DNA from: an uncultured Eubacteriales bacterium
GTDB lineage: Bacteria > Bacillota > Clostridia > Christensenellales > CAG-138
DNA: 64,000 nucleotides
NCBI GenBank assembly: GCA_902798825.1
Contig: CADBYI010000009.1
Location: 4,721 to 68,720, forward strand
Direction: 5' to 3'
In this document: positions 410-47,781 of the stretch, in pieces
Numbering within the stretch: position 1 is the first letter of the stretch
Layout of the letters: each line of letters begins with the position of its first letter
Program-made: the position numbers and the translations under genes
Notes under the pieces: model-generated
The model's database searches: none
What the model was told of the DNA's origin: nothing
What the model saw: the letters and a program-made list of their open reading frames with translations, nothing else

Positions 410-2542
410 TTATATGAGTCGAATGGGGCCGTGGGCGCGGATGGTCCGCTCTCGGCCGGAGTCGAAGCGGATGGCAAGGCACTGCTGCTCCCGGTCCACC
501 TCCAGCACGGTGCCCTTGCCGAAGAGGGCGTGCTCCACCCGGACCCCGGGCCCCAGGGGGTCCGATGGGGGCGCCATGCGCTTTTGGGTGCCCCGGATGT
601 AGCTTTGGGCCTCCCGGACCCAGGCCGGGTCCAGCTCCACCAGATAGTTCAGATTCTCCTTCCCCATCTCGAACAGGAACCGGGAGGGGTAGCGGGCCGT
701 GCCCTCGTGGGAGACCCCGGCGGCCTCGGTGAGGGTCAGGGTCCTCTCCGCCCGGGTGGCGGCCACGTAGCAGAGGCGGCGCTCCTCCTCCATGCGCTCC
801 CGGGTGTCGGTCTTGCGGCTGGGGAAGACGCCCTCGTTCAGGCTGGCCACGATCACGTGGGGGAACTCCAGCCCCTTGGCGTTGTGAACGGTCATGAGCT
901 TCACGGAGTCCTTCCGATCCTCCCGGTCCCGATCCGTGAACAGGGCCACCTCCGAGAGAAAGTCCTCCAAGGTGGTGTGCTCCCCGGCGCTGCTCTCGTA
1001 CTCCTCCAGGCTTTGCAGCAGCTCGGCGATGTTGTCCAGCCGATCCCCGTCCCCCAGGGTCCTGAGCATCTTCATATATCCGCTCTCGTTCAAGAGGTGG
1101 CTCAGCAGCTCGCTCATCTTCATCTCCCCATAGCCCTCGTAGGCCTTCAGAAGGCTCACGAAGGCGGCGGCGTCCGAGGAGGCGATGAGGGGATGGTCCA
1201 GATTGTCCAGCAGGGCCCCATAGAGGGTGCGGCCCCTGGCCTGGGCATAGGAGCGAAGGAAGGCCATGCGCTTTTTGCCCACGCCCCGCCGAGGCTCGTT
1301 CACCACCCGGGCGAAGGCCAGATCGTCCCCCTGGACCAGCATGCGCAGATAGCAGATGGCGTCCTTGATCTCCTTGCGGCCGTAGAACTCCATGCCCCCG
1401 TAGACGGCGTAGGGTATCTTGGCGTGCAAAAGGGCGTCCTCCAAACTCCGGGACACGTAGTGGGCCCGATAGAGGACGGCCATGTCCCGCCAGTCGTTCC
1501 CCTGTTCCTTCAGCTCCTTCAGCCGGGAGACGATGAACTTGGCCTCCGCCCCCACGTCCTTGGCGTGGTAGTAGGGGGGCACGGGGCCCGCCGGGTTCAC
1601 GGCGTGAAGCTGGCGCTCCACCCGCTGCTGGTTCTTCTCGATGAGGGCGTTGGAAGCGGCCAAAATCTGGGGGGTGCTGCGGTAGTTCTCGGTGAGGACC
1701 ACGGTCTGGGCGTCGGGATACTTGTTGGGGAAGTCCAGGATGAAATGGACGTCCGCCCCCCGCCAGGTGTAGATGGTCTGGTCCGGGTCCCCCACCACGA
1801 AGAGGTTTTTGTGGCAGGAGGAGAGCATGTCGCAGAGCTCGTACTGCTTGCCGTCGATGTCCTGGAACTCGTCCACCATCACGTATTCGAACCGCCGGGC
1901 CCACTTCTCCCGGACCTCCCGATTCCCCCGCAGCAGGGCCACGGCCATGTCCACCAGATCCTCGAAGTCCAGGGCGTAGATCTTCCGCTGCTCATAGAGG
2001 TAGCGGTAGAACATCTGCTTTTTCCGGTTCTGCTCCCGCTGGATCAGGTCCAAAAGGGGCTCGTCCGATTCCCCGGTGAGCAGCGGCACATAGGCCAGAT
2101 CCCACTTCATGTCGTCGGTCAAGTCCGCCGCCTTGTGGAGGCTCATCTCCTTCAGCGTCATGCCCATGTCCTCGAACACGGTGCGCAGCAGGGAATCCTT
2201 GTCCTCCTCGTCCAGGACCAGAAAATTTTGAGGCCAGCCCAGGGTATGCAGATCCTCCTTCAGGATCATGAGCCCCAGGGCGTGGAAGGTGCAGATATAG
2301 CCCGTGTCCCCGTCCCCCACCATGGACCGGACCCGTTGCTTCATCTCGTTGGCCGCCTTGTTGGTGAAGGTCACGGCCAGGATGTGGCCGGGGCTCACGC
2401 CGCCCGCCTCCACCAGATACCCATAGCGCCGGGTCAGGGTCCGGGTCTTGCCCGTGCCGGCCCCGGCCACCACCCGGATATACCCCTCGGTGGCCTGCAC
2501 GGCCTGCAGCTGCTCCCTGTTCAATCCCGCCAAACTGTCCAT
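410..2542 (-). CDS. UvrD/PcrA-type superfamily-1 ATP-dependent DNA helicase
   Basis: 710-aa ORF with Walker A AGAGTGKT and the helicase motifs TFTNKAANEM, DEFQD, VGDPDQTIYTWRGA, ENYRS, TVHNAKGLEF and VAATRA. Its stop lies 14 nt before the WYL-regulator start. Confidence 0.9.
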   Translation of the reverse strand: MDSLAGLNREQLQAVQATEGYIRVVAGAGTGKTRTLTRRYGYLVEAGGVSPGHILAVTFTNKAANEMKQRVRSMVGDGDTGYICTFHALGLMILKEDLHTLGWPQNFLVLDEEDKDSLLRTVFEDMGMTLKEMSLHKAADLTDDMKWDLAYVPLLTGESDEPLLDLIQREQNRKKQMFYRYLYEQRKIYALDFEDLVDMAVALLRGNREVREKWARRFEYVMVDEFQDIDGKQYELCDMLSSCHKNLFVVGDPDQTIYTWRGADVHFILDFPNKYPDAQTVVLTENYRSTPQILAASNALIEKNQQRVERQLHAVNPAGPVPPYYHAKDVGAEAKFIVSRLKELKEQGNDWRDMAVLYRAHYVSRSLEDALLHAKIPYAVYGGMEFYGRKEIKDAICYLRMLVQGDDLAFARVVNEPRRGVGKKRMAFLRSYAQARGRTLYGALLDNLDHPLIASSDAAAFVSLLKAYEGYGEMKMSELLSHLLNESGYMKMLRTLGDGDRLDNIAELLQSLEEYESSAGEHTTLEDFLSEVALFTDRDREDRKDSVKLMTVHNAKGLEFPHVIVASLNEGVFPSRKTDTRERMEEERRLCYVAATRAERTLTLTEAAGVSHEGTARYPSRFLFEMGKENLNYLVELDPAWVREAQSYIRGTQKRMAPPSDPLGPGVRVEHALFGKGTVLEVDREQQCLAIRFDSGRERTIRAHGPIRLI

Positions 2543-2618
2543 ACGCTTCCCCTCGTCCCTCGTTTTTCTATACTATAGCACACTATCTGTCCCATAAACA
2601 GGATTCTTACACTCATTT

Positions 2619-2633
2619 TGCAATTTATTTGCA
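2619..2633. promoter_or_regulatory. Inverted repeat TGCAA-N5-TTGCA, candidate operator
   Basis: tgcaatttatttgca lies in the divergent uvrD/rrf2 intergenic region and has perfect 5-nt arms. Confidence 0.3.
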
Positions 2634-2698
2634 AAAACAGCGGGAGGGGCAAGCCCCTCCCCTACGGGTGCGTTGGAGTCCAAATGGTGTAGCCCCCC

Positions 2699-2727
2699 TT
2701 GCCAACCCATAAACCTTGTGATATAGT
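2699..2727 (+). promoter_or_regulatory. Sigma-A-type promoter of rrf2
   Basis: TTGCCA (2699-2704), 17-nt spacer, TATAGT (2722-2727), 35 nt upstream of the rrf2 ATG. Confidence 0.45.
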
Positions 2728-2762
2728 AGGTTGAAGAAAGCCACAGGAAGGAGGCCACGGCC

Positions 2763-3176
2763 ATGATGATCTCCACACGGGGGCGGTACGCCCTGCGGGT
2801 GATGCTGGACTTAGCCATGAACGAAGGGGGCAGCTACGTGCCCCTGGACGACATCGCCCAAAGGGAGGGCATCTCGGAAAAATATCTGGAGAACATCATC
2901 GTGAGTTTGAGCCGGGCGGGTCTCGTGAAGGCCCTGCGGGGCAAGGGCGGCGGCTATATGCTGTCCCGGCGTCCCGCGGAGTACCCCATCGGCGAGATAC
3001 TGCAGCTGACGGAAAAGACGTTGGCCCCGGTGACCTGCCTCGAATCGGGGGCTGCCTGCCCCCACGCGGCGGACTGCCTGACCCTGCCCTTCTGGCAGGG
3101 GTTGGACCGGGTCATCGACGACTACCTGATGGCCCACACCCTGGCGGACCTGCTGCCGAAGGGCAAGTCAGTCTGA
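2763..3176 (+). CDS. Rrf2-family transcriptional regulator (IscR/CymR-like)
   Basis: MMISTRGRYALRVMLDLA... is an Rrf2 winged-helix N-terminus. The C-terminal Cys residues (CLESGAACPHAADC) are compatible with a cluster-ligating IscR type. Confidence 0.9.
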   Translation: MMISTRGRYALRVMLDLAMNEGGSYVPLDDIAQREGISEKYLENIIVSLSRAGLVKALRGKGGGYMLSRRPAEYPIGEILQLTEKTLAPVTCLESGAACPHAADCLTLPFWQGLDRVIDDYLMAHTLADLLPKGKSV

Positions 3177-3425
3177 TGAAAACTGCGCTTTCATCAGACT
3201 GAGGCTCCGCCTTCGCTTCGCTCGCAGGCCCCGCCTATGACCTTAAAGGCCACCGGGCACGCGATGCGTTAAGCAAACATGCCAGTGGCATGTTTGTAGC
3301 GGAGCGGGGAGCAATCTATGATTGCGACCTGGTCCTGCAGGTGTGTCGATAAGAACGCATTGCGTTCTTATATCCACACGCACATGTCGCTGGATTTGAC
3401 ATATTCGAAGCCGCCTGTTCTTCCT
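3169..3425. repeat. Hairpin-rich non-coding insert between rrf2 and nifS
   Basis: Three perfect stems: cagtctgatgaaa/tttcatcagactg (3169-3201), caaacatgcc/ggcatgtttg (3274-3296) and ataagaacgca/tgcgttcttat (3349-3371). The cores catgtcgctggattt (3383-3397) and gttcttcct (3417-3425) recur with the same spacing at 34750-34791. Confidence 0.6.
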
Positions 3426-3505
3426 CCGCAAGTTGAGTTCGCTCGGCTACACCTCGCTTATGTCGCCCGGTGAGTCGACTTCTTTGCAGAGAAAAAATAA
3501 ACCTA

Positions 3506-3533
3506 TTGACAAGGTAGGTTAATATGGTATACT
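3506..3533 (+). promoter_or_regulatory. Sigma-A-type promoter of nifS-iscU
   Basis: TTGACA (3506-3511), 16-nt spacer ending in TGg, TATACT (3528-3533). Confidence 0.5.
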
Positions 3534-3565
3534 GTAGCTGACCGAAAACAGAAAGGACCCATTGT

Positions 3566-4678
3566 ATGATATACGCAGACAACGCGGCCACCACCAAGCT
3601 GAGCCCCCACGCCCTGGAGGTGATGGTGGAGACCGCCCAGACCGCCTGGGGAAACCCCTCCAGCCTCTACGGGCTGGGGCAAGCCGCCCAGGAGGCCCTG
3701 TCCGACGCCCGGGCGCGCATGGCGAAGATTTTGGGGGCGGAGGCAAAGGAGATCTACTTCACCTCCGGCGGCAGCGAAAGCGACAACCAGGCCATCCGTT
3801 CCTGTGCCCGGCTGGGGGCGGCCAAGGATAAGAAGCACATCGTGTCCACCGCCTTCGAGCACCACGCCGTGCTCCACACCCTCAAGCGCCTGGAAAAGGA
3901 GGGCTATGAGGTCACCTATCTGCCCGTCCACGAGAACGGCATCGTCACCGCAGAGGAGGTAGCGGCGGCCATCCGGCCCGACACCTGCCTGGTCACAATT
4001 ATGTTCGCCAACAACGAGATCGGCACCATCCAGCCCATCCGGGAGATCGGCGCGGTGTGCCGGGCGGCCAAGGTCCCCTTCCACACGGACGCGGTCCAGG
4101 CCGCGGGCCACGTGAAGATCGACGTGAAGGACATGAACATCGACCTTCTCTCCCTCTCCGCCCACAAGTTCCACGGCCCAAGGGGCGTGGGCGCCCTCTA
4201 CTGCAGGACCGGCCTCCCCCTCTACCCCCTCATCGAGGGCGGCGCCCAGGAGCGCAACCGCCGGGCGGGCACGGAGAACCTCATGGGCATCCGGGCCATG
4301 GTCACGGCCCTGGAGGACATGGCAAAGGACATGGACAAAAACGCCGCCTATGTGCAAGGGCTCCGGGATCGGCTGATCGCCGGCCTCTCCGCCATCCCCC
4401 ACAGCGCCCTGAACGGGGATCGGGTGAACCGGCTCCCCGGCAACGTGAACTTCTGCTTCGAGGGCATCGAGGGCTTGGACCCCAGCCACGTGCTCCTGGC
4501 CATCGGCCGGCCCCACGAGGTGGCCCACGGGTCCCTTCGACTGACCCTGTCGGAGGAGAACACCCAGGCGGAGGTGGACGCCATCATAAAGGCGGTGCCC
4601 GAGATCGTGTCGTATCTGCGGGGCTTCTCCCCCATCTGGCAGGACCTTGAGGCCGGACGCCGTCAGCACCTGCTTTGA
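3566..4678 (+). CDS. nifS: NifS/IscS-type (class I) cysteine desulfurase homologue lacking the catalytic-Cys loop
   Basis: MIYADNAATTKL..., FTSGGSESDN and SLSAHKFHGPRGVGAL (PLP-Lys region) are present. The sequence reads EGIEG|LDPSHVLLAIG, so the SSGSAC(T/S)SG segment is missing (see finding). Confidence 0.85.
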   Translation: MIYADNAATTKLSPHALEVMVETAQTAWGNPSSLYGLGQAAQEALSDARARMAKILGAEAKEIYFTSGGSESDNQAIRSCARLGAAKDKKHIVSTAFEHHAVLHTLKRLEKEGYEVTYLPVHENGIVTAEEVAAAIRPDTCLVTIMFANNEIGTIQPIREIGAVCRAAKVPFHTDAVQAAGHVKIDVKDMNIDLLSLSAHKFHGPRGVGALYCRTGLPLYPLIEGGAQERNRRAGTENLMGIRAMVTALEDMAKDMDKNAAYVQGLRDRLIAGLSAIPHSALNGDRVNRLPGNVNFCFEGIEGLDPSHVLLAIGRPHEVAHGSLRLTLSEENTQAEVDAIIKAVPEIVSYLRGFSPIWQDLEAGRRQHLL

Positions 4679-4698
4679 GAGAAGAAAGGAAGGAACCT

Positions 4699-5133
4699 AT
4701 GGCATTATACAGTGAAAAAGTGATGGATCATTTCCTGCACCCCCGGAACGTGGGCGTCATCGAGGACGCGGACGGCGTGGGCGAGGTGGGCAACGCCAAG
4801 TGCGGCGACATCATGAAGATCTTTCTGAAGATCGAGGGCGGCATAGTCACCGACGCCAAGTTCTCCACCTTCGGCTGCGGCAGCGCCATCGCCAGCAGCT
4901 CCATGGCCACGGAGATGATCAAGGGCCAGCCCATCGATAAGGTCATGGAGCTGACCAACAAGGCCGTGGTGGAGGCCCTGGACGGGCTCCCGGCCTATAA
5001 GCTCCACTGCTCGGTCCTGGCCGAGGAGGCGGTGAAGGCGGCCCTGAAGGACTATTTTGACAAGAACAACATCCCCTACGACCCGGCCCAGTTCCCCGAC
5101 GCCCCCTCCTGCGCCTCCTGCGATATGGAATAA
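4699..5133 (+). CDS. iscU: IscU/NifU-type Fe-S cluster scaffold
   Basis: ATG 4699 is preceded by AAGGAAGGA. MALYSEKVMDHFLHPRNVG..GNAKCGD..FGCGSAIASSS..LHCSVLA carries the three conserved scaffold Cys residues. Confidence 0.9.
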   Translation: MALYSEKVMDHFLHPRNVGVIEDADGVGEVGNAKCGDIMKIFLKIEGGIVTDAKFSTFGCGSAIASSSMATEMIKGQPIDKVMELTNKAVVEALDGLPAYKLHCSVLAEEAVKAALKDYFDKNNIPYDPAQFPDAPSCASCDME

Positions 5134-5152
5134 ATGAGCGATCAACGACAGC

Positions 5153-5178
5153 AAAGCACGGCTCCGGCCGTGCTTTTT
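5153..5178 (+). terminator. Rho-independent terminator after iscU
   Basis: Stem agcacggc/gccgtgct, loop tccg, followed by TTTTT. Confidence 0.7.
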
Positions 5179-5212
5179 GTATGTCCGACCCCTATGGTTC
5201 CTAAAAGGAGAA

Positions 5213-5326
5213 AACCAGTGGTTTGCCAAATGAAGAACCAGTGGTTTTGCAAATAAAAAACCTAAAGAAAAGGAAAAGGAAAATGAAAATGAAAATGAAA
5301 AAGAAAAAGAAAAGGAGAAGGAAAAG
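5213..5326. repeat. 23-nt tandem duplication followed by an A/G-rich low-complexity tract
   Basis: aaccagtggtttgccaaat (5213-5231) and aaccagtggttttgcaaat (5236-5254) are followed by aaagaaaaggaaaaggaaaatgaaaatgaaaatgaaaaagaaaaagaaaaggagaaggaaaag (5264-5326), which includes (gaaaat)x3. Confidence 0.8.
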
Positions 5327-5376
5327 TTTTTCTTTTTTCTATGGGAGAAAAGAAAAACCAGGCCCCCTTGGGGGGA

Positions 5377-6960
5377 TCAGAACTGCCCGTAGATGAAGTC
5401 GGAGGCGGTGTAACCGGGTCCGTAGGCCCCCAGCAGAAGGCAGAGAAGCAGCAGCGCCAGGGCGGCCAGCCAGAGCTTCCAGGGGGTGTTGATAAAGCGG
5501 GTGCGGAAGGAGCCCTCCCCCTTCAGCAGGCTGACCAGGAGCATCAGGGCGGCCATGGAGAGGACGATGGCCCAGGCGCCCCCGGAGAGGCCCAGGACGG
5601 AGAGGCCACGGGCCACGGCGCCGTAGTTGAAGGTGGTGAACAGGGACGAGAAGGCCCGCCACACGCCCCGGGGGCCGGCGTAGCAATCCCAGAGGCGGAT
5701 GAGGCACAGGAGCAAAAAGGTGCGAATTGTCTCGAAGGCCCCGTAGCCCCCGGTGGCCTTCAGGCCCGGGAAGCGGCTGTGGAAGCCCTCGTAAAGGGGC
5801 TTCAATGTGAGGGAAAGGAGGATGACCAGGCCGTTGGTCAGTCCCCACAGGGCATAGTTCCAGCCCGCCCCGTGCCAGACGCCGGTGGCCAGCCACACCA
5901 GAAGGGTGGCCCCATACAGGGGCAGGCGGGACAAAAAGCCGTTGCCGAACCGGCCCCGGAGGGCCTTGGTCCAGCGGAGGAAGGGCTTGGACACGTTCAG
6001 GGGATAGAACAGGTAATCCCGAAACCAGCTGCCCATGGTCATGTGCCAGCGGGTCCAGTATTCCTCGATGTTTTTGGACAGATAGGGCCTATCGAAGTTT
6101 TCGGCCAGGGTGACGCCGAAGAGCTCCCCCACCCCCAGGGCCATGTCGATGCCGCCGGTGAAGTCGGCGTAGAGCCTAAGGGCGTAGAGGACCATGCCAA
6201 GCAGCACCCAGCCGCCCCGGAAGCTGTCCGCCTCCGCCCCAAAGAGCAGGGCCAGGCCGGGGGCCAGCCGATCGGCCACCAGCAGCTTCTTGGCCGCGCC
6301 CCACAGGATGCGGACCAGGCCCCGGCCCAGCCGGTCGAAATCGAAGTTTGCCCCCCCATAGAGGGTTTCGGACAGGCTGTCGTAGCGGCTGATGGGGCCC
6401 TGGATCATCTGGGGGAAGAAGGAGGCGAAGAGGGCGTATTTGAGGAAGTTATCCTCCGGCGGGTACTTGCCCCGCTTCACGTCCATCAGATAGCCCAGGG
6501 ATTGGAAGGTATAGAAGGAGATGCCCAGGGGCAGCACCCAGTGGACCTGAAAGGGGGCGCGAAGGGCCGAGAGCAGAAAGGCCGTGTATTTCAACGCCCC
6601 CAGGAGCCCCAGATTGACCAGGAGGCACAGGAGGAACAGGATGTTGCGCTTTCGGCCCTGGGCCTTCTTATAGGCGGTCAGAGCCTCCCGGGACAGGTCC
6701 TTTTTGTGCTCGGCCACATAGGCCTTTTGCCGCTGCAGGCTCCGACCCAGGAGCCGAGCGGTGCCATAGACGGTGACGACGGTGACCAAAAGGAAGGGCA
6801 GATACCCCTTCCCCGCCAGGGCATAGAACGCCAGGCTCCCCGCCAGCAGAACGAGATAGCGGAAGCGCCTGGGAAGGATATAGTAGACTGTCAGCAGCCC
6901 CAGCACCAGCAGGAGGAAGCCGCCGGAGAGAAAGGTCATGTAGGAAAGCACCTCATCCAC
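5377..6960 (-). CDS. MBOAT-family membrane O-acyltransferase (DltB/AlgI-like)
   Basis: 527-aa polytopic ORF. The N-terminus [19 protein letters not shown] and the blocks [21 protein letters not shown]-like ([20 protein letters not shown]) and [12 protein letters not shown] are typical MBOAT His-containing blocks. Confidence 0.85.
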   Translation of the reverse strand: [527 protein letters not shown]

Positions 6961-7068
6961 CGCCTGTGGCGGTCCCCCTTCCCCTCAAGGGGAAGGCTTA
7001 TATATCACCGCCTGTGGCGGTCCCCTCTTCCCTGCAATGCTTCGCAATGCTTAGGGGAAGGCTTATGG
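6957..7068. repeat. Two tandem REP-like units (double stem-loops) inside the dlt-like operon
   Basis: Unit 1 is caccgcctgtggcggtcccccttcccctcaaggggaaggcttata. Unit 2 is the same, but the tcaa loop is replaced by tgcaatgcttcgcaatgcttag, which itself contains a gcaatgctt duplication. Stems are ccgcc/ggcgg and ccttcccc/ggggaagg. Confidence 0.75.
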
Positions 7069-7073
7069 TTCGA

Positions 7074-7307
7074 TCATTCCTCTTCGATGCGCTCGATCAG
7101 GGCGAAGAGGGCCCGGGCGCTGTTGAAGTTCTCGGGCACGATGTCCACCGCCCCCAGCTCCACACCGTAGGTCTCGGAAAGCTCCGCCACGATGGACACC
7201 ACGTCGAAGGAGGTCAGGATATGGCCGTCGATGAGCCCCTCCGCCGTCAAAAAGTCGATGTCGGGATGCATGTCCCGCAGCATGTCCAACAGTTGTTCAA
7301 AGGTCAT
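7074..7307 (-). CDS. D-alanyl-carrier-protein-like acyl carrier protein (DltC-like)
   Basis: 77 aa starting at the internal ATG 7307: MTFEQLLDMLRDMHPDIDFLTAEGLIDGHILTSFDVVSIVAEL... The start overlaps the ligase stop (ATGA). Confidence 0.75.
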   Translation of the reverse strand: MTFEQLLDMLRDMHPDIDFLTAEGLIDGHILTSFDVVSIVAELSETYGVELGAVDIVPENFNSARALFALIERIEEE

Positions 7308-8803
7308 TTTCCATACTCCTTCTGTTCGATGGCCCGCCGGTCGATCTTCCCGTTGGGCAGGTGGGCCAATTCGCTGCGCTGCTCGGTCCGATTGGGGGTC
7401 ATGTAGCCGGGCAGCTTCTGCTTGAGGCCGATGACCAGGTCCCAGGGCTGGGCCGGGCCGGTGTAGAAAAGGTCGATCCGCTGTCGGTCCGCCACATAGA
7501 GGCACACGGCCTCGTGGACCCCGTTCAGGCTCAGGGCGGCGCTTTCGATCTCCCCCAGCTCCACCCGATGGCCCATGTGCTTGATCTGCTGGTCCCGGCG
7601 GCCGATGAAGATCAGATCCCCGTTCTCGTCCAGGCGCCCCCTGTCCCCGGTGCGGTAGCAGACCGCCCCGCTGTCCGGGTCCTCAGGGTCGGGGATCAAA
7701 GCGGCGGCGGTCCGGTCCGGGTCGTGATAGTAGCCCGCCATGACCGAGGGGCCGCCGATGAGGATCTCCCCCTCCCTGTCCAGCTTGCCCTCGTCGTTGA
7801 TTAGATACAGCTTCGTGCCCGGAAAGGGCTTGCCCACGGGGATGGGCTTTGCCGCATCCTGTGGCCCCACGACGGGGTGATAGAAGCTCATGCCCGTGCA
7901 CTCCGTAGCCCCGTACAGCTGGAAGATCCGGGCGTCGGGGCAGGCCTTTTGCCAGGCCGCCAGGTGCTTTGGGGGGAAGGTCTCGCTGCCGAAGCACATG
8001 AGCTTCAGATGCTCCGGCACGATGGCGTAGAAGGTCCGAAGCCGGGCCACCAGGCTGAAGGCGGAGGACACCCAGCACAGGGCGTTGATCCTCCGCTCGT
8101 TGATATATTCGATCAGGGCCATGGGGTTCACGAACAGCTCCCGGGGCAGCAGGTAGGCCGTGGCCCCCTTCACCATGACCCCCAGCAGCTCCTTGAGCCA
8201 GGCGTCGAAATACAGGGGGGACTGGATGCCGAAGATCAGGCTCTCGTCGAAGCCCAAAGCTTCCGGCAGGGTGGCGGCGTAGTCGAGCAGGCTCCTTTCC
8301 CGGATGGACACCCCCTTCGGTTCCCCGGTGGAGCCGGAGGTGAACACCACGTAGGACAGGGCGTCCCCGTCGCTTTCCTCCCGCAGCCGCGCCGGGCCCG
8401 GGAAGGCCGCCGCCTGGGTGTAAACCATATGCCGGGCCGCCGGGCAAAGGCCCTGAGCGGCGGTGAGATTCTTTTCGTCCGTCAGGATGAACCGGGGGCT
8501 CAGGGTGCGCACGATCCGCTCCAGCCGCTCCCGGGGCATCTGCTCGTCCAGAGGCACATAGAAGCAGCCCGCCTCCATGACCCCCAGAAAGGCCGCGATC
8601 TGGTGGGCGCTGCGCTCCATGAGGACCCCCACGGGCTCCCCCTGGGCGCCGCCGTTTTTCAGGCAGGCCCCCACGTTGGCCGCCGCCTGCCGCAGCTCAC
8701 GGAAGCTTAGCCCCCGCTCCCCGTCGGCAAAGGCCAGCTTGTCCGGGAGCCGATCGGCGGTGGCGTTGAGATAGGATAAAAAGCTTTTCATATGAATCCC
8801 CAT
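7304..8803 (-). CDS. AMP-forming adenylation enzyme, DltA-like carrier-protein ligase
   Basis: FTSGSTGEPKGV, YGATE and YRTGDRG are ANL-superfamily motifs, and the ~495-aa size matches DltA. The alternative start ATG 8791 (MKSFLSYL) has the better RBS. Confidence 0.8.
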   Translation of the reverse strand: MGIHMKSFLSYLNATADRLPDKLAFADGERGLSFRELRQAAANVGACLKNGGAQGEPVGVLMERSAHQIAAFLGVMEAGCFYVPLDEQMPRERLERIVRTLSPRFILTDEKNLTAAQGLCPAARHMVYTQAAAFPGPARLREESDGDALSYVVFTSGSTGEPKGVSIRERSLLDYAATLPEALGFDESLIFGIQSPLYFDAWLKELLGVMVKGATAYLLPRELFVNPMALIEYINERRINALCWVSSAFSLVARLRTFYAIVPEHLKLMCFGSETFPPKHLAAWQKACPDARIFQLYGATECTGMSFYHPVVGPQDAAKPIPVGKPFPGTKLYLINDEGKLDREGEILIGGPSVMAGYYHDPDRTAAALIPDPEDPDSGAVCYRTGDRGRLDENGDLIFIGRRDQQIKHMGHRVELGEIESAALSLNGVHEAVCLYVADRQRIDLFYTGPAQPWDLVIGLKQKLPGYMTPNRTEQRSELAHLPNGKIDRRAIEQKEYGK

Positions 8804-8865
8804 TCTTTATAAGCTTTTACGTTCAGAGATCCCTCGCTCGACGCTCGGGATGACAAGAGGGGGCC

Positions 8866-9531
8866 TTACTGGTCCGCGGCCACCCGATACTCCATGGAGG
8901 CGATGCGGCGCGGGCCCCCGTCGATCTCCTTCACCTGGACCAGCAGCAGAACGCCGCCCGCCCGGTAGGTGTAGAGCCCGTTCACGTCCTCCCCGCCCAG
9001 GGTGTCCAGGAGTTTCTCCTCCTCGTCGTAGATGCGCAGCCCCTGAGGTATGGTCACGGTGTCGTCCGCCACGGTGATGGCGGTGATGCGCTCCACGCCC
9101 TCCACCTCGTTCACCGTCAGCTCGAAGCCCGGATAGTAGTAGAACAGGTCCTTGCCGATGTAGGCGCAGCTGTCGGCCTCGAAGCTCCCCATGGGGGCCC
9201 CCAGGGCCTCCAGCACCGGCGCGGCCTCCATCATGGGCTCCATGCGCACGCCCTTGCTTTCAAAGTACAGCTCCAAAGCGGGCTCCGCTTCCGACTCCTC
9301 TGCCGCCGCAGGCTCGGCCGATTCAGCCGCCGCCTGGGGGACCGCCTCCGCCGCCTGGGGCTGGGCCGCCGGGGCCGGGGCCTCCGTGGGGGCCGCCGTA
9401 GCCTGGACGGCGTTGGGGTCCAGATAGACCACCCCTTCCTTCTCGGCGGGCCGGGGGGCCGGTTCGCCGCCGCAGCCTATTAAACAAGCCAGCAGCACCA
9501 GGGCCAGGGCCCAGATCATCCCTTTTTTCAT
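8866..9531 (-). CDS. Putative lipoprotein with an Ala/Pro/Glu-rich linker
   Basis: The start at the internal ATG 9531 overlaps the upstream stop (ATGA). MKKGMIWALALVLLACLIGCGG carries a lipobox. I recognised no family. Confidence 0.55.
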   Translation of the reverse strand: MKKGMIWALALVLLACLIGCGGEPAPRPAEKEGVVYLDPNAVQATAAPTEAPAPAAQPQAAEAVPQAAAESAEPAAAEESEAEPALELYFESKGVRMEPMMEAAPVLEALGAPMGSFEADSCAYIGKDLFYYYPGFELTVNEVEGVERITAITVADDTVTIPQGLRIYDEEEKLLDTLGGEDVNGLYTYRAGGVLLLVQVKEIDGGPRRIASMEYRVAADQ

Positions 9532-10565
9532 CCGTCTACCTCCGCTTTCGCCCGCTTCTCCCGGGCATATCGCTCCGACAAATCGCTGTATTGGGCGGCC
9601 GCCACCGGGTCCAGCCGCTGATCCTCGATGAGTCCCCTTTCCTTCAGGTGCTCCCCCAGCCAACGGGTGTACTTCTCCGCCCCGTATACGTTCAGGTGAA
9701 TGCCCCCGTCGTAGGTGTCGGTGCTAAGGTCGATGCCCATGTCCTCCATGAGGGGGATGGCGTTGATATACTCCACCCGGTTCTGTTCGGCGTAATCCGC
9801 CAGCCACAAATCCCACTCCGGATACCAGGCCGGATACAGGCAGGGGCTCTTCACCAGGATCAGGGCGATGTCCTTCTCCCGGCACAGGGAGACGATCCGA
9901 TTCAGATACTCCACCGGCTTGTCCCCGAAGGACGGTTCCTGGAGCGCCGGCGCCGCGGGGAGCCGGGTGTAGGGCACCTGCTCCGTCCGCATGAGATAGC
10001 CGTTGTAGGTGAGCTCCGGCCCCTGAAAGAGGTACAGGGTGTCCTCCGCCGTAAGCTCGAACAGCCGGTCGTGATACCGCAAAAGGGGCAGATAATAGCT
10101 GATCTCGCTTTCCCCCTCCGTCAGGGAAGCCCGGACGGCCTCGAACTTTTCTTTGCTCAGGCGCATGCCGTCCAGGGTCATCCGGTTGTAGGCTTCGCTC
10201 TGGGGCTCGGCATAGCGCAGGGAGCAGACGGACAGGACCACCGCCCGGGGGGTCTCGACCTTCAGCATCTCGCTGAGCAGATAGTAGCTCTGCCACATGA
10301 GCTGCTGGGCGCTGCCCCGGATATAGCTGGTGGCCCCGAACTCCTCGAACAGGGTCACCGGGGAGAAGCTTTCGTATACCTCGCAGTCCCCCACGAAGAG
10401 GACTTGGTGCCCCTCGTTCCGGTGGGTGTACCAGTTCTCCACCATGCTCCCCTCCAACGTGACGCCGGAGGCGTACTTGGGCCGGACCAGGCGGCCCAGG
10501 CCCCACAGCAGCAGACCGGCCAGCACCAGGGTGAACACCGGGGCGATCCAACGGTTACGTTTCAT
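9528..10565 (-). CDS. Membrane-anchored SGNH/GDSL-like protein (DltD-like position)
   Basis: There is an N-terminal TM helix (WIAPVFTLVLAGLLLWGL). Block I is LFVGDCEVYE (Cys where GDS has Ser) and block V is DGGIHLN. It is the first gene of the operon. Confidence 0.5.
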   Translation of the reverse strand: MKRNRWIAPVFTLVLAGLLLWGLGRLVRPKYASGVTLEGSMVENWYTHRNEGHQVLFVGDCEVYESFSPVTLFEEFGATSYIRGSAQQLMWQSYYLLSEMLKVETPRAVVLSVCSLRYAEPQSEAYNRMTLDGMRLSKEKFEAVRASLTEGESEISYYLPLLRYHDRLFELTAEDTLYLFQGPELTYNGYLMRTEQVPYTRLPAAPALQEPSFGDKPVEYLNRIVSLCREKDIALILVKSPCLYPAWYPEWDLWLADYAEQNRVEYINAIPLMEDMGIDLSTDTYDGGIHLNVYGAEKYTRWLGEHLKERGLIEDQRLDPVAAAQYSDLSERYAREKRAKAEVDG

Positions 10566-25099: not shown

Positions 25100-25100
25100 T

Positions 25101-26093
25101 ATGGAAAAAGAGAGATTATTGGAATGCACGGATTTGCACACCTCCTTCTTTATGGAGGGAGATCGCGAGGTCAAAGCAGTCAACGGCGTCTCCTACTACA
25201 TAGATAAGGGGGAGGTCGTCGCCGTGGTGGGCGAAAGCGGCTGCGGCAAGTCCGTGACCCAGATGTCCGTGATGCAGCTCATCAAGGCGCCGGGCAAGGT
25301 GCTGTCCGGAAACGTGACCTTCAACGGCGCGCCGCTGATGCAGGACGGAAAGCACGTGGCGGATATGAACAAGATCCGCGGCAACCAGATCGCCATGATC
25401 TTTCAGGAGCCCATGACCTCCCTGAACCCGGTGTTCACCGTGGGCGAGCAGATCGTGGATATCATCCGTCAACACAAAAAGCTCAGCAAGCGGGAAGCGT
25501 GGAAACTGGGCGAAAGCTCTCTGGCGGCCGTGGGCATTCCCGATGCGCCCGCCCGCATGAAGAACTATCCCTTTGAGATGAGCGGCGGTATGCGGCAGCG
25601 GGTGCTCATCGCCTTTGCCGTCGCGCTGGAATCGGAGCTGATCATCGCGGACGAGCCCACCACCGCCCTGGACGTGACCGTTCAGGCTCAGGTCATGGAG
25701 CTGCTGATGGACATCAAGCGCCGGAACAATTCCAGCATCATCGTCGTCACCCACAACCTGGGCCTGGTGTCCCGGTATGCGGACCGCATTTACGTCATGT
25801 ACGCCGGCCGCATCATCGAGTCGGGCACCAAGGAGCAGATACTCACCGATCCCAAGCACCCCTACACCAAGGGACTGCTGGCGGCAGTCCCCAAGCTGGA
25901 GAACAAGAAGCGGGATGCTCTCGTTCCCATCGACGGAGCGCCGCCCAGCCTGGTGGATCTGCCGGATCGCTGCGCATTCTATCCCAGGTGCACCTTCGCC
26001 GACGCAACCTGCGAGAAGCAGGGCTATCCCTGCCTCCGCCCCGTGGGGAAGAATCATTATGCAGCCTGCCATCTGGCCGCGGAGGAGGAGTGA
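25101..26093 (+). CDS. ABC transporter ATP-binding protein (DppD/OppD type)
   Basis: Walker A GESGCGKS, signature MSGGMRQRV, Walker B LIIADEPT, and an oligopeptide C-terminal domain with Cys residues. Confidence 0.9.
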   Translation: MEKERLLECTDLHTSFFMEGDREVKAVNGVSYYIDKGEVVAVVGESGCGKSVTQMSVMQLIKAPGKVLSGNVTFNGAPLMQDGKHVADMNKIRGNQIAMIFQEPMTSLNPVFTVGEQIVDIIRQHKKLSKREAWKLGESSLAAVGIPDAPARMKNYPFEMSGGMRQRVLIAFAVALESELIIADEPTTALDVTVQAQVMELLMDIKRRNNSSIIVVTHNLGLVSRYADRIYVMYAGRIIESGTKEQILTDPKHPYTKGLLAAVPKLENKKRDALVPIDGAPPSLVDLPDRCAFYPRCTFADATCEKQGYPCLRPVGKNHYAACHLAAEEE

Positions 26094-35980: not shown

Positions 35981-37432
35981 ATGAAGAAAGCAGACATCGG
36001 CCTTATCGGCCTGGCCGTCATGGGCGAAAATTTGGTCATGAACATGGAGAGCAAGGGCTTCACCGTGGCCGTCTTCAACCGGACCACCTCCAAGGTGGAC
36101 GCCTTTGTGGAAGGCCGGGCCGCCGGCAAGAACATCATCGGCTGCCACAGCCTGGAGGAGTTGGTGGCAAACCTGGAAAAGCCCCGGAAGGTCTTCATGA
36201 TGGTGAAGGCCGGCAGCGCCGTGGACAGCATGATCGACCAGCTGCTGCCCCTGCTGGAGGACGGGGACATCCTCATCGACGGCGGCAACAGCCACTTCCC
36301 CGACACCATCCGGCGGACGGAGTATGTGGAATCCAAGGGCAAGCTCTACATCGGCACCGGCGTGTCCGGCGGCGAGGAGGGCGCCCTGAAGGGACCCTCC
36401 ATGATGCCCGGCGGCTCCCCCGCGGCCTGGCCCTATGTGAAGCCCATCTTCCAGGCCATCTGCGCCAAGGTGGAGGACGGCTCCCCCTGCTGCGACTGGG
36501 TGGGCGAGAACGGCGCGGGCCACTTCGTGAAGATGGTCCACAACGGCATCGAGTACGGCGATATGCAGCTCATCTGCGAGGCCTATCAGCTCATGCGGGA
36601 TCTGCTGGGCCTCTCCTATGAGGAGATGCACGACATCTTCACCAAGTGGAACGAGACGGAGCTGGACTCCTATCTGATCGAGATCACCCGGGACATCCTG
36701 GGCTTCAAGGACGAGGACGGCTCCCCCCTGGTGGAGCACATCCGGGACACCGCGGGCCAGAAGGGCACCGGCAAGTGGACCGGCATCGCGGCCCTGGACG
36801 AGGGCGTGCCCCTGACCCTCATCGGCGAGGCCGTGTTCGCCCGGTGCCTGTCCGCCATGAAGGAGGAGCGGGTGGAGGCCGCCAAGGTCTTCGATCGGAA
36901 GATTCCCGCCTTCACCGGCGACAAGGAAGCCTTCATCGAGGCCATCCGGCAGGCCCTCTTCGCCTCCAAGATCATCTCCTACGCCCAGGGCTACACCCTG
37001 ATGCGCACGGCGGCGGAGCACTACGGCTGGAATCTGAACTACGGCGGCATCGCCCTCATGTGGCGGGGCGGCTGCATCATCCGCAGCGTCTTCCTGGGCA
37101 AGATCAAGGAAGCCTACGACAAGAACCCCGACCTCAGCAATCTGCTGCTGGACCCCTACTTCAAGGAGACCATCGAGAAGCTGGTGCCGTCTTGGCGCAC
37201 CGTGGCCGCCGCCGCCCTATCCTACGGGGTGCCCGCCCCGGCCATGACCTCCGCGCTGAGCTACTTCGACGGCTACACCACCGAGCGGCTGCCCGCCAAC
37301 TTGCTGCAGGCCCAGCGGGACTACTTCGGCGCCCACACCTATGAGCGGCTGGACGCGCCCCGGGGCCAGTTCTTCCACACCAACTGGACCGGCCACGGCG
37401 GCAACACGGCGGCCACCACCTATAACGCGTAA
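35981..37432 (+). CDS. gnd: 6-phosphogluconate dehydrogenase (decarboxylating)
   Basis: ATG 35981. [48 protein letters not shown] and [19 protein letters not shown] are classic Gnd blocks. Confidence 0.9.
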
Positions 37433-45671: not shown

Positions 45672-47644
45672 TCAGGCCTTCATGCCCCGGACCGCTTCGG
45701 CTACCAGCTCGTCGTCGGCCACATAGGGCATGGTGATATGATCCGTGCCGGCGTTCAGGCGGTTGTACTCCGCCGCGGTGGCCATGGCGTTCTCGTTCCG
45801 GGCCCAGCTGCGGCGGGCCACGCCCACCATGGTGTCCCAGGGCATGGCCATCCGAAGGATGGTGTCCACCCGCTCGGAGCCGTCCAGCACCATGCCGAAG
45901 CCCCCGTTGATGGCCCGGCCGATGCCCGTGCCGCCGCCGTTGTGGAGGGCGATGTAGCTCATGCCCCGGGCCGCGTTGCCGGCATAGCACTGGGTGGCCA
46001 TTTCGGCCATGATGTTGGAGCCGTCCTTGATGTTGGAGGTCTCCCGGAAGGGGGCGTCGGTGCCGCCGGTGTCGTGATGGTCACGGCCCAGGATCACGGG
46101 GCCGATCTCCCCGTTGCGCACCATTTCGTTGAACTTCAGGGCGATGTTCATGCGGCCCATGGCGTCCTGATAGAGGATGCGGCACTGGGTGCCCACCACC
46201 AGCTTGTTCTTCTTGGCGTCCCGGTGATGTATTCCGCGGCGGCCGCGTCGGTCTTGTCCAGATCCTCCGGGTTCCGGGAAAGGCAGCACCAGCGGAAGGG
46301 ACCGTAGCCGAAGTCGAAGAGCTGGGGCCCCAGGATGTCCTCCACGTAGGAGGGGAACACGAAGCCGTCCAGATCGTTTTCGCCGTTCTTGCAGACGCTC
46401 TTCACGCCGGAATCGTAGACGGCCTTCAAAAAGCTGTTGCCGTAGTCGAAGAAGTAGGTGCCCTTCTCGTGGAACTTGCAGATCATCTCATAGTGATGGT
46501 GCAATGTCTTGTCCACCAGCTTGCGGAAGGTGTCGGGATCCTTGTCCAGCATCTCGGTGCGCTCTGCGAAGGTAAGGCCCTGGGGGCAGTAGCCGCCGTC
46601 ATAGGGCACGTGGCAGGAGGTCTGGTCGCTCATAAGGTCCACATGGACGTTCTTCTCATAGAGGTACTCCAGCAGATCCACGATGTTGCCGTTGTAGGCC
46701 ACGGCGCAGGGCTCCCCGGCCTTCTGGTGATCGAGGGCGATCTGCACGGCCTCCTCCAGGCTGCCGGTCCGGTGGCTCACCCAGCCCTGGGTATAGCGGG
46801 TGTCGATGCGGGAGTCGTCCACCTCGGCGATGATGGAGGCGGCGCCGGCGATCATGGCCGCCTTGCCCTGGGCGCCGCTCATGCCGCCCAAGCCCGCGGA
46901 AACGAACAGCTTCCCGGCCAGGTTCTCATCGTTGGGGATGCCCAGCTTCAGCCGGCCTGCGTTCAGCAGGGTGTTGAAGGTGCCGTGGACGATGCCCTGG
47001 GGCCCGATGTACATCCAGCCGCCGGCGGTCATCTGGCCGTAGTTGGCCACGCCCAGGGCCGCCGCCCGGTTGAAGTTCTCCTGATCGTCGAAGGTGCCCA
47101 CCATGAGGCCGTTGGTGATGATGACCCGGGGGGCCAGCTTGTGGGAATGGAACAGGCCCAGCGGATGGCCGGACATGACCACCAGGGTCTGCTCATCGGT
47201 CAGGGCCTCCAGATACTTCTTGATGAGCCGATACTGCATCCAGTTCTGGCAGACCTGGCCGGTCTCGCCGTAGGTGGTGAGCTCGTAGGGATAGAGGGCC
47301 ACGTCGAAGTCCAGGTTGTTGTCGATCATGACCTGGATGGCCCGACCTTCGATGCAGTTGCCCTTGTACTCATCGATGGGCTTGCCGTAGAGCTTGCCGG
47401 CGGGGCGGAAGCGATAGCCGTAGATGCGGCCGTGCTCCTCCAGCTCCTGGGCGAACTCACGGGCCATCTGGGCGTGATGGTCGGGGTGGATGTACCGAAG
47501 GGCGTTCTTGATGGCCAGGGCCTTGTCGGCCTCGGTCAGATGGGACTCCCGGCGGGGGGCCCGGCGATAGCCCGGCTCCAGAGCGGGGTATTCAGGAAGA
47601 TCGTAATCCAGGGTAAGAGTTTCTGCCGTGTTGAGATCAGTCAT
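45672..47644 (-). pseudogene. hutU: Urocanate hydratase, reading frame disrupted near 46221-46240
   Basis: The N-terminal ~470 codons (MTDLNTAETL... to ...PEDLDKTDAAAAE) lie in the frame of ORF 46148-47731. The C-terminal ~183 codons (HHRDAKKNKLVVGTQCRILYQD...GRDHHDTGGTD...) lie in the frame of ORF 45672-46289. Total length is 1973 nt, which is not divisible by 3. Confidence 0.85.
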
Positions 47645-47700
47645 CCATGTGTCCTCTCTTTCGAAAGATATAAATGAAGAGTCAAATTGGCTTTTCCACC

Positions 47701-47728
47701 TTGTATTATACCGTACCTGTGATATAAT
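47701..47728 (+). promoter_or_regulatory. Sigma-A-type promoter of the LysR-family gene
   Basis: TTGTAT (47701-47706), 16-nt spacer ending in TGa, TATAAT (47723-47728). Confidence 0.45.
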
Positions 47729-47781
47729 CAAAAATATTTAGTCGGTATTTTTACAATACTTTTTGGGTATGGAGGTGTCCC

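Follow-up and report, generated by a model that had tools for sequence, protein, structure and literature searches.

Two-gene NifS-NifU systems (NIF-like or minimal ISC), found in Clostridia and other anaerobes, bring together an Rrf2 regulator, nifS and a single-domain nifU (TIGR03419), and the locus described here has the same operon. Engineered active-site mutants of the desulfurase, NifS C325A and IscS C328A, were reportedly described by Zheng et al. in 1994 and in later work. The class I desulfurase consensus SSGSACTS surrounds the persulfide-forming cysteine and lies on an extended flexible loop (PMC8300815). C-DES proteins form a distinct, conserved and monomeric family, with pyruvate, ammonia, and sulfide or cysteine persulfide as products (PMC8300815). 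A. fulgidus IscS (PDB 4HVK/4EB5) is a naturally inactive desulfurase paralogue that pairs with IscU; its PLP-binding lysine is replaced (Asp199) and its loop cysteine is retained as a cluster ligand (PMC8918507). The two-gene ISC system of M. acetivorans is functional and not essential, and the use of sulfide has been proposed for A. fulgidus IscS-IscU (PMC8918507); a minimal SUF system using inorganic sulfide is reported in a bioRxiv abstract (10.1101/2024.03.20.586028).

The DNA analysed here, referred to as the window, is a 64-kb stretch of a rumen Clostridia contig with dense coding, a GC content of 62.6% and no Ns. On its plus strand, genes for an Rrf2-family regulator, NifS and NifU follow one another (Table 1), with the start of nifU 21 nt downstream of nifS, and the whole is an ordinary NifS-NifU system of the standard two-gene kind, accompanied by an Rrf2 regulator. 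Exact copies of the Rrf2 protein were found on at least 21 contigs, with a 394-aa NifS following it in each, and exact copies of the NifU protein on 7 other contigs. A promoter-like site 5' of nifS is kept across sister species (alignment A5), and its conservation and consensus match suggest a putative promoter role.

Table 1. Features of the nifS locus and of the gene set downstream of it (positions in the 64-kb window)
Feature	Position	Strand	Basis or group
Rrf2-family (IscR/CymR-like) transcriptional regulator, 137 aa	2763..3176	+	PF02082 119.5 bits; TIGR00738 130.3 bits vs cutoff 73.3
Promoter-like TTGACA-16-TATACT, 11/12 matches, TG-extended	3506..3533	+	Consensus scan; conserved block in alignment A5
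nifS, class I (NifS/IscS-type) PLP cysteine desulfurase gene; a 24-codon internal gap shortens the product from 394 to 370 aa	3566..4678	+	PF00266, TIGR03402, NF002806, alignment A1
PLP-binding Lys201 codon (SAHK motif), intact	4166..4168	+	Direct reading; H200 and K201 invariant in A1 and A4
Deletion junction, break between 4473 and 4474; the absent 72 nt read TGAAAG…GGGCTC in same-strain contigs	4473..4475	+	Alignments A2, A3; blastn breakpoints in L086-L101
nifU, single-domain U-type Fe-S scaffold, 144 aa, intact	4699..5133	+	TIGR03419 NifU_clost 203.8 bits vs cutoff 187.9; PF01592 165 bits
Terminator-like hairpin and T-run 3' of nifU	5153..5176	+	Consensus scan, pattern match only; regional count no higher than in shuffles
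MBOAT membrane acyltransferase	5377-6960	-	dlt-like set
Carrier-protein-like ORF, 77 aa	about 7074-7307	-	dlt-like set
AMP-binding ligase	7304-8803	-	dlt-like set
Weak GDSL-like protein	9528-10565	-	dlt-like set

The NifS protein of the window reads ...RLPGNVNFCFEGIEG/LDPSHVLLAIGRPHEVAHGSLRLTLS, with …NFCFEGIEG/LDPSHVLL… around the break (slash), whereas the 30-odd closest database proteins are 394 aa long, all with the block ESLLLLLDQAGICASSGSACTSGS, and are 85-96% identical to the window protein outside the gap. The absent block is exactly these 24 residues, between G303 and L304 (alignment A1), and in HMMER alignments to all solved class I desulfurases the match breaks at query residue 304, with about 23 target residues skipped. 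ESLLLLLDQAGICASSGSACTSGS includes the SSGSACTS catalytic-cysteine motif, and when the full-length form is aligned with the solved enzymes the block falls on their GSAC motif; the gap also takes 11 conserved residues (ESLLLLLDQAG) upstream of the loop. The protein of the window thus has no catalytic-cysteine loop, and its remaining cysteines (80, 141, 165, 213 and 297) include none in the loop and none that compensates. The first-pass annotation, which had claimed an in-frame loss of 24 codons carrying the catalytic-cysteine loop, with the frame preserved at 370 aa, the PLP-lysine region intact, none of the five remaining cysteines in an equivalent position and the adjacent U-type scaffold unharmed, is upheld on all of these points.

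The rest of the protein is that of a fold-type I PLP enzyme, with the class V aminotransferase domain (PF00266) scoring 240 bits over residues 2-338 and top PDB matches that are all cysteine desulfurases (E 1e-88 to 1e-71). The SxHK lysine that binds PLP is Lys206 in E. coli IscS, and its counterpart K201, in the motif SAHKFHGPRG, is intact and invariant in alignment A1; the conserved His and Arg are also retained. Both curated models score the protein below cutoff (TIGR03402 NifS, 453.3 bits in two pieces against 530.75; NF002806 IscS subfamily, 286.3 against 304), while the full-length allele of the same strain (P0121) passes the second (329.5) and stands less than 3 bits under the first (528.0). 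AlphaFold2 models of the short and full-length forms have pLDDT below 50 across the C-terminal small domain (278-328 and 299-346), and folding of that domain is in doubt for the short form because the gap removes not only the loop but also the 11 conserved residues ahead of it. Under either origin of the gap considered below, the 370-aa product would be a dead desulfurase, with its PLP-lysine kept and its persulfide nucleophile gone; no enzyme persulfide, no conversion of L-cysteine to L-alanine and no sulfur transfer to NifU is predicted, because there is no nucleophile for the PLP-cysteine adduct (mechanism in PMC8300815 and PMC8918507).

Among the described systems, the protein resembles the NifS of the two-gene systems: its 370 shared residues are 94-100% identical to full-length orthologues, the PLP-lysine, His and Arg are present, and a cluster mate bears the NCBI name 'cysteine desulfurase NifS'. 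It falls outside the class I desulfurases in lacking SSGSACTS with the defining catalytic cysteine and in its two sub-cutoff scores. Like NifS C325A and IscS C328A, it keeps the PLP site and has no persulfide cysteine, and would be expected to bind PLP without turnover; unlike these point substitutions, which leave loop and fold intact, it loses the loop entirely, together with the 11 residues that precede it. With C-DES it shares a NifS-like fold devoid of the conserved active-site cysteine, but it belongs to no such family, being a deletion form of a canonical NifS that occurs as a singleton, and the cysteine is not conservedly absent among its relatives, all of which have the loop, down to those at 100% identity. 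Relative to A. fulgidus IscS, the best structural match to its C-terminal region, it is a mirror image, with the lysine kept and the loop cysteine gone, and so it does not have the features of that inactive scaffold.

The distribution of the short form was established from the genomic neighbourhood, where a look-up of exact copies of the Rrf2 and NifU proteins of the window returned 16 loci from independent metagenome assemblies. In all 13 with complete coverage of the gene nifS encodes 394 aa; in the other three it is cut by a contig end, and the two of these that reach the junction both have the 72 nt. Several of these loci are nearly indistinguishable from the window: L087 and L101, from sample SAMEA5383990, are 100.000% identical to window positions 1350-4473 and 99.90% identical to 4474-8455, L086 and L097 (ERZ27280616) are 99.85-99.97% identical and L089 is 99.8% identical, and each carries 72 extra nt exactly at 4473/4474. 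With two further contigs from SAMEA5383990 (L182 and L184), the comparison could be carried to window position 37,094 at 99.97-99.99% identity with no gaps. Across about 35.7 kb (1350-37094), then, about 10 SNPs and no indel other than the 72 nt separate the window from an independently assembled copy of the same strain. The full-length allele is thus found in effectively the same strain from at least three other samples.

Protein collections give the same picture. The 370-aa protein (P0122) occurs on a single contig of 76,948 nt (NCBI and ENA) in a collection of 15 billion proteins, whereas its full-length twin (P0121, 394 aa), identical to it at all 370 shared residues, occurs on five contigs, and all other members listed of their 108-member cluster are 394 aa long. 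An exact look-up of the short protein among contigs returned no match, its one contig being given by the cluster look-up, and a codon-degenerate pattern for the FEGIEG/LDPSHV junction had no match in 185,579 species-representative genomes and none in 241 million metagenome records. The 72-nt gap is private to a single metagenome-derived contig and is no property of the lineage; on the best explanation of the data, this organism carries in its Rrf2-nifS-nifU operon an ordinary nifS that codes for a full-length class I cysteine desulfurase.

In nucleotide alignments (A2 and A3) exactly 72 nt are cleanly missing, as the first-pass annotation had expected of an orthologue alignment. Same-strain contigs read GAGGG/TGAAAG…GGGCTC/CTTGGAC, in codons …GAGGGT GAA…GGC TCC TTG…, and the break against this DNA lies one base off the codon boundary, with GG and C remaking a glycine codon. 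The position given by the first-pass annotation, 4474/4475, therefore stands only against orthologues with GGC at that point, the break against same-strain DNA being at 4473/4474. Microhomology at this blunt junction amounts to 0 nt relative to same-strain DNA, with 1 nt of ambiguity relative to the GGC orthologues, and no direct repeat at the junction, nor any k-mer-length repeat that a de Bruijn assembler could collapse, was found there. Repeat-mediated slippage and assembler repeat collapse were rejected on these grounds, and a hairpin-bypass deletion was rejected on the folding of the 72-nt segment, whose DNA folds, with and without flanks, are no more stable than those of shuffled sequences (z about 0.07-0.8). 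Spontaneous bacterial deletions usually use short repeats, and blunt homology-free junctions are atypical of them; such a junction is what the abutting of two sequence pieces gives.

Irregularities of a similar size recur in other metagenome copies of the gene. Blunt in-frame nifS gaps are present at other positions in three close orthologues, P0035 (69 nt, with removal of the PLP-lysine), P0036 (126 nt) and P0038 (90 nt), all on ENA assemblies with 'scaffold_N'-style names and no Ns (loci including L083, L084 and L085). One of these loci, L085 (ERZ1024287 scaffold_12833, 2501-4237), also contains an insert of 259 nt, and its nifU lacks 72 nt in frame, with loss of the first conserved cysteine (GNAKCGD). 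Also among the closest matches are a protein of 550 aa in which part of the sequence is duplicated internally and another with an insertion of 9 aa (P0027, P0020); of the 38 closest database entries, about 5 are structurally odd. The five gaps each measure 69-126 nt, approximately the scale of a k-mer or a read, with no small in-frame indels seen, and this clustering suggests a technical length scale; the association with 'scaffold_' names consists of three cases chosen because they are gapped. For these other gapped proteins a look-up of full-length twins gave nearest representatives that differ from them at 10-24 residues.

The coding sequence itself evolves under normal purifying selection, as indicated by a pairwise dN/dS of about 0.13-0.24 for nifS in the clade. 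The window NifS has no departures from positions with at least 90% consensus among 113 homologues, and the branch leading to its gene carries 12 silent private codons against one replacement. Gene decay, or pseudogenisation, was rejected on these two counts, and the absence of decay means that the gap is either far younger than the divergence of at most 0.1% from intact strains or not biological. Neither accompanying substitutions nor a compensating cysteine, as repurposing would require, are present in the 370-aa protein.

An artefact at the level of assembly and a very recent, sample-specific null allele are about equally likely as the origin of the gap. An artefact, for which we infer a technical cause, is given a probability of roughly one half. 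Two sequence pieces may have been abutted across a short unassembled stretch, or an aberrant path may have been taken through a mixed population; either route would leave a blunt, homology-free junction, in frame by chance. The restriction of the short protein to one contig against five for its twin, the intact gene in independent assemblies 99.9-100% identical over about 35.7 kb, the lack of any match to the junction pattern in either collection, the undecayed gene, the blunt junction with no unusual hairpin, and the base rate of similar 69-126-nt blunt gaps elsewhere in the same gene on scaffold-style assemblies all argue in this direction. An artefact is harder to reconcile with the contig itself, which has no N run and no k-mer-length repeat to collapse, and which is otherwise perfectly collinear, through 35.7 kb, with the independent assemblies, as a generally sloppy assembly would not be; a contig-level assembler would moreover need reads truly spanning the novel junction, a technical cause has only a one-in-three prior of an in-frame length, and the 'scaffold_' link draws on three cases picked for having gaps. 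Error-prone long-read assembly was rejected as a source, there being no other indels against the same strain in 35.7 kb and the neighbouring genes being full-length in Pfam. The same requirement for junction-supporting reads in k-mer assembly, the same absence of Ns and repeats and the same collinear flank speak for a genuine loss-of-function deletion of very recent date that became fixed or dominant in the rumen population behind the contig, to which we would assign a little less than an even chance. Being in frame, the deletion suits a variant with a less polar effect on the downstream nifU, and the lack of decay fits an event far younger than the divergence of at most 0.1% from intact strains. 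Such an allele is predicted to bind PLP, to form no enzyme persulfide and to abolish NifS-NifU sulfur delivery, with survival depending on another desulfurase or SUF system or on abundant rumen sulfide; the dispensable two-gene ISC of M. acetivorans and the sulfide use proposed for A. fulgidus IscS-IscU (PMC8918507) lend this some plausibility, as does the minimal SUF system with inorganic sulfide in the abstract cited above (10.1101/2024.03.20.586028). A real deletion has to contend with its occurrence on one contig and in no other assembly, the intact gene of the same strain in at least three other samples, the clear purifying selection on the gene in the clade and a microhomology-free blunt junction atypical of spontaneous bacterial deletions. 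No second desulfurase that could act as a backup was found within the 64-kb window (tblastn; Pfam on 20 neighbouring ORFs).

Coexistence of both alleles in the sample, with the assembler reporting the deleted path of a minority structural variant, is improbable: a re-assembly from samples of the same study (STEW19-1_SAMEA5383990, which may not be the source of the window), at 99.97-100% identity, does have the full-length allele, and assemblers retain one path per bubble, but bubble resolution normally keeps the better-covered path, so that a rare allele should go unreported. Artefact, recent null allele and minority variant all mean that the lineage is left with an ordinary NifS. A more far-reaching proposal, that a NifS without its cysteine loop has been repurposed as a C-DES-like C-S lyase, a partner of NifU with a scaffold-only or regulatory role, or an enzyme whose cysteine is supplied in trans, could draw on the intact frame, PLP-lysine, His, Arg, promoter and downstream nifU, on the few replacements on the terminal branch, and on the existence of natural desulfurase-fold proteins without the cysteine (C-DES) or without activity (A. 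fulgidus IscS) (PMC8300815, PMC8918507). It is nonetheless very improbable, since the short form is conserved nowhere and the same-strain and same-species contigs all encode 394 aa; the 370 shared residues are those of the full-length allele, with adaptive changes and a compensating cysteine both absent, and the 11 conserved residues ESLLLLLDQAG are lost besides the loop. A repurposed cysteine-independent enzyme is, on this comparison of sequences, not supported. Among the origins listed in the first-pass annotation, the recent inactivating deletion and the assembly artefact survive, while the repurposed lyase or trans-cysteine partner fails against same-strain contigs (99.9-100%) that are full-length; the short form shared by close relatives together with a compensating cysteine, which would have spoken against a private gap, was looked for, and no relative is short. 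Equally far-fetched is a short allele that is real, expressed and kept in some rumen populations, where it would dimerise and dock NifU in a scaffold-only or dominant-negative role, with sulfur drawn from ambient sulfide; if true, such an allele would bring the strain closer to an Fe-S assembly that depends on sulfide and needs no desulfurase, as has been proposed for some anaerobes.

The biological weight of the case is minor, in that NifS-NifU is normal in this lineage and the gap, seen once, is not new biology. Two cautions follow for the use of such data: annotation pipelines will still name the ORF a cysteine desulfurase despite the missing catalytic residue, and metagenome copies of nifS show a noticeable rate of blunt gaps, duplications and insertions. 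If the allele is real and dominant in its sample, it would represent a natural nifS knockout in an uncultured rumen anaerobe, and a modest hint that the NifS-NifU system is dispensable in a sulfide-rich habitat.

Several further features of the window were recorded. The spacer between the Rrf2 gene and nifS (3177-3565) is 389 nt long, whereas in the sister species L002, L003 and L005 no more than about 60 nt separate the end of the Rrf2 gene from the nifS promoter; the extra sequence differs in length among strains (about 297, 365 or 389 nt) and contains many palindromes (AAACATGCCAGTGGCATGTTT, AAGAACGCATTGCGTTCTT), as well as the motif CATGTCGCTGGATTTGACATATT at 3383-3405, in single copy in the window. 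A piece 82% similar to it is inserted between nifS and nifU in L085 (3595-3875). By these features the extra sequence resembles a mobile intergenic element of small size; it matched no Rfam family, and Rfam and tRNA scans of the window gave nothing relevant. Directly downstream of nifU, on the minus strand, lies a dlt-like (D-alanylation-type) gene set (5377-10565; Table 1).

For the 527-aa product of an ORF on the minus strand (46148-47731) no exact copy is on record, although the other proteins of the window that were looked up do have one, and this region may differ between otherwise near-identical strains. The 775-aa ORF at 251-2578 on the plus strand is antisense to a UvrD-like helicase gene (410-2542, minus strand, 710 aa, PF00580/PF13361); it was rejected as an overlapping gene, the GC3 pattern supporting the minus-strand frame only, and is, judged by that pattern, a spurious long ORF typical of GC-rich DNA. 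Between 19244 and 29076 the third-position GC of ORFs is 0.76-0.83 against about 0.9 elsewhere, and the block may be of different origin; its genes encode a ketopantoate-reductase-like ApbA, an Opp-type ABC peptide transporter and two paralogues of the PEP-mutase/isocitrate-lyase family. Within it, the ORF calls leave 888 nt empty (25100-25987) at the place of a second ABC ATPase gene in related contigs.
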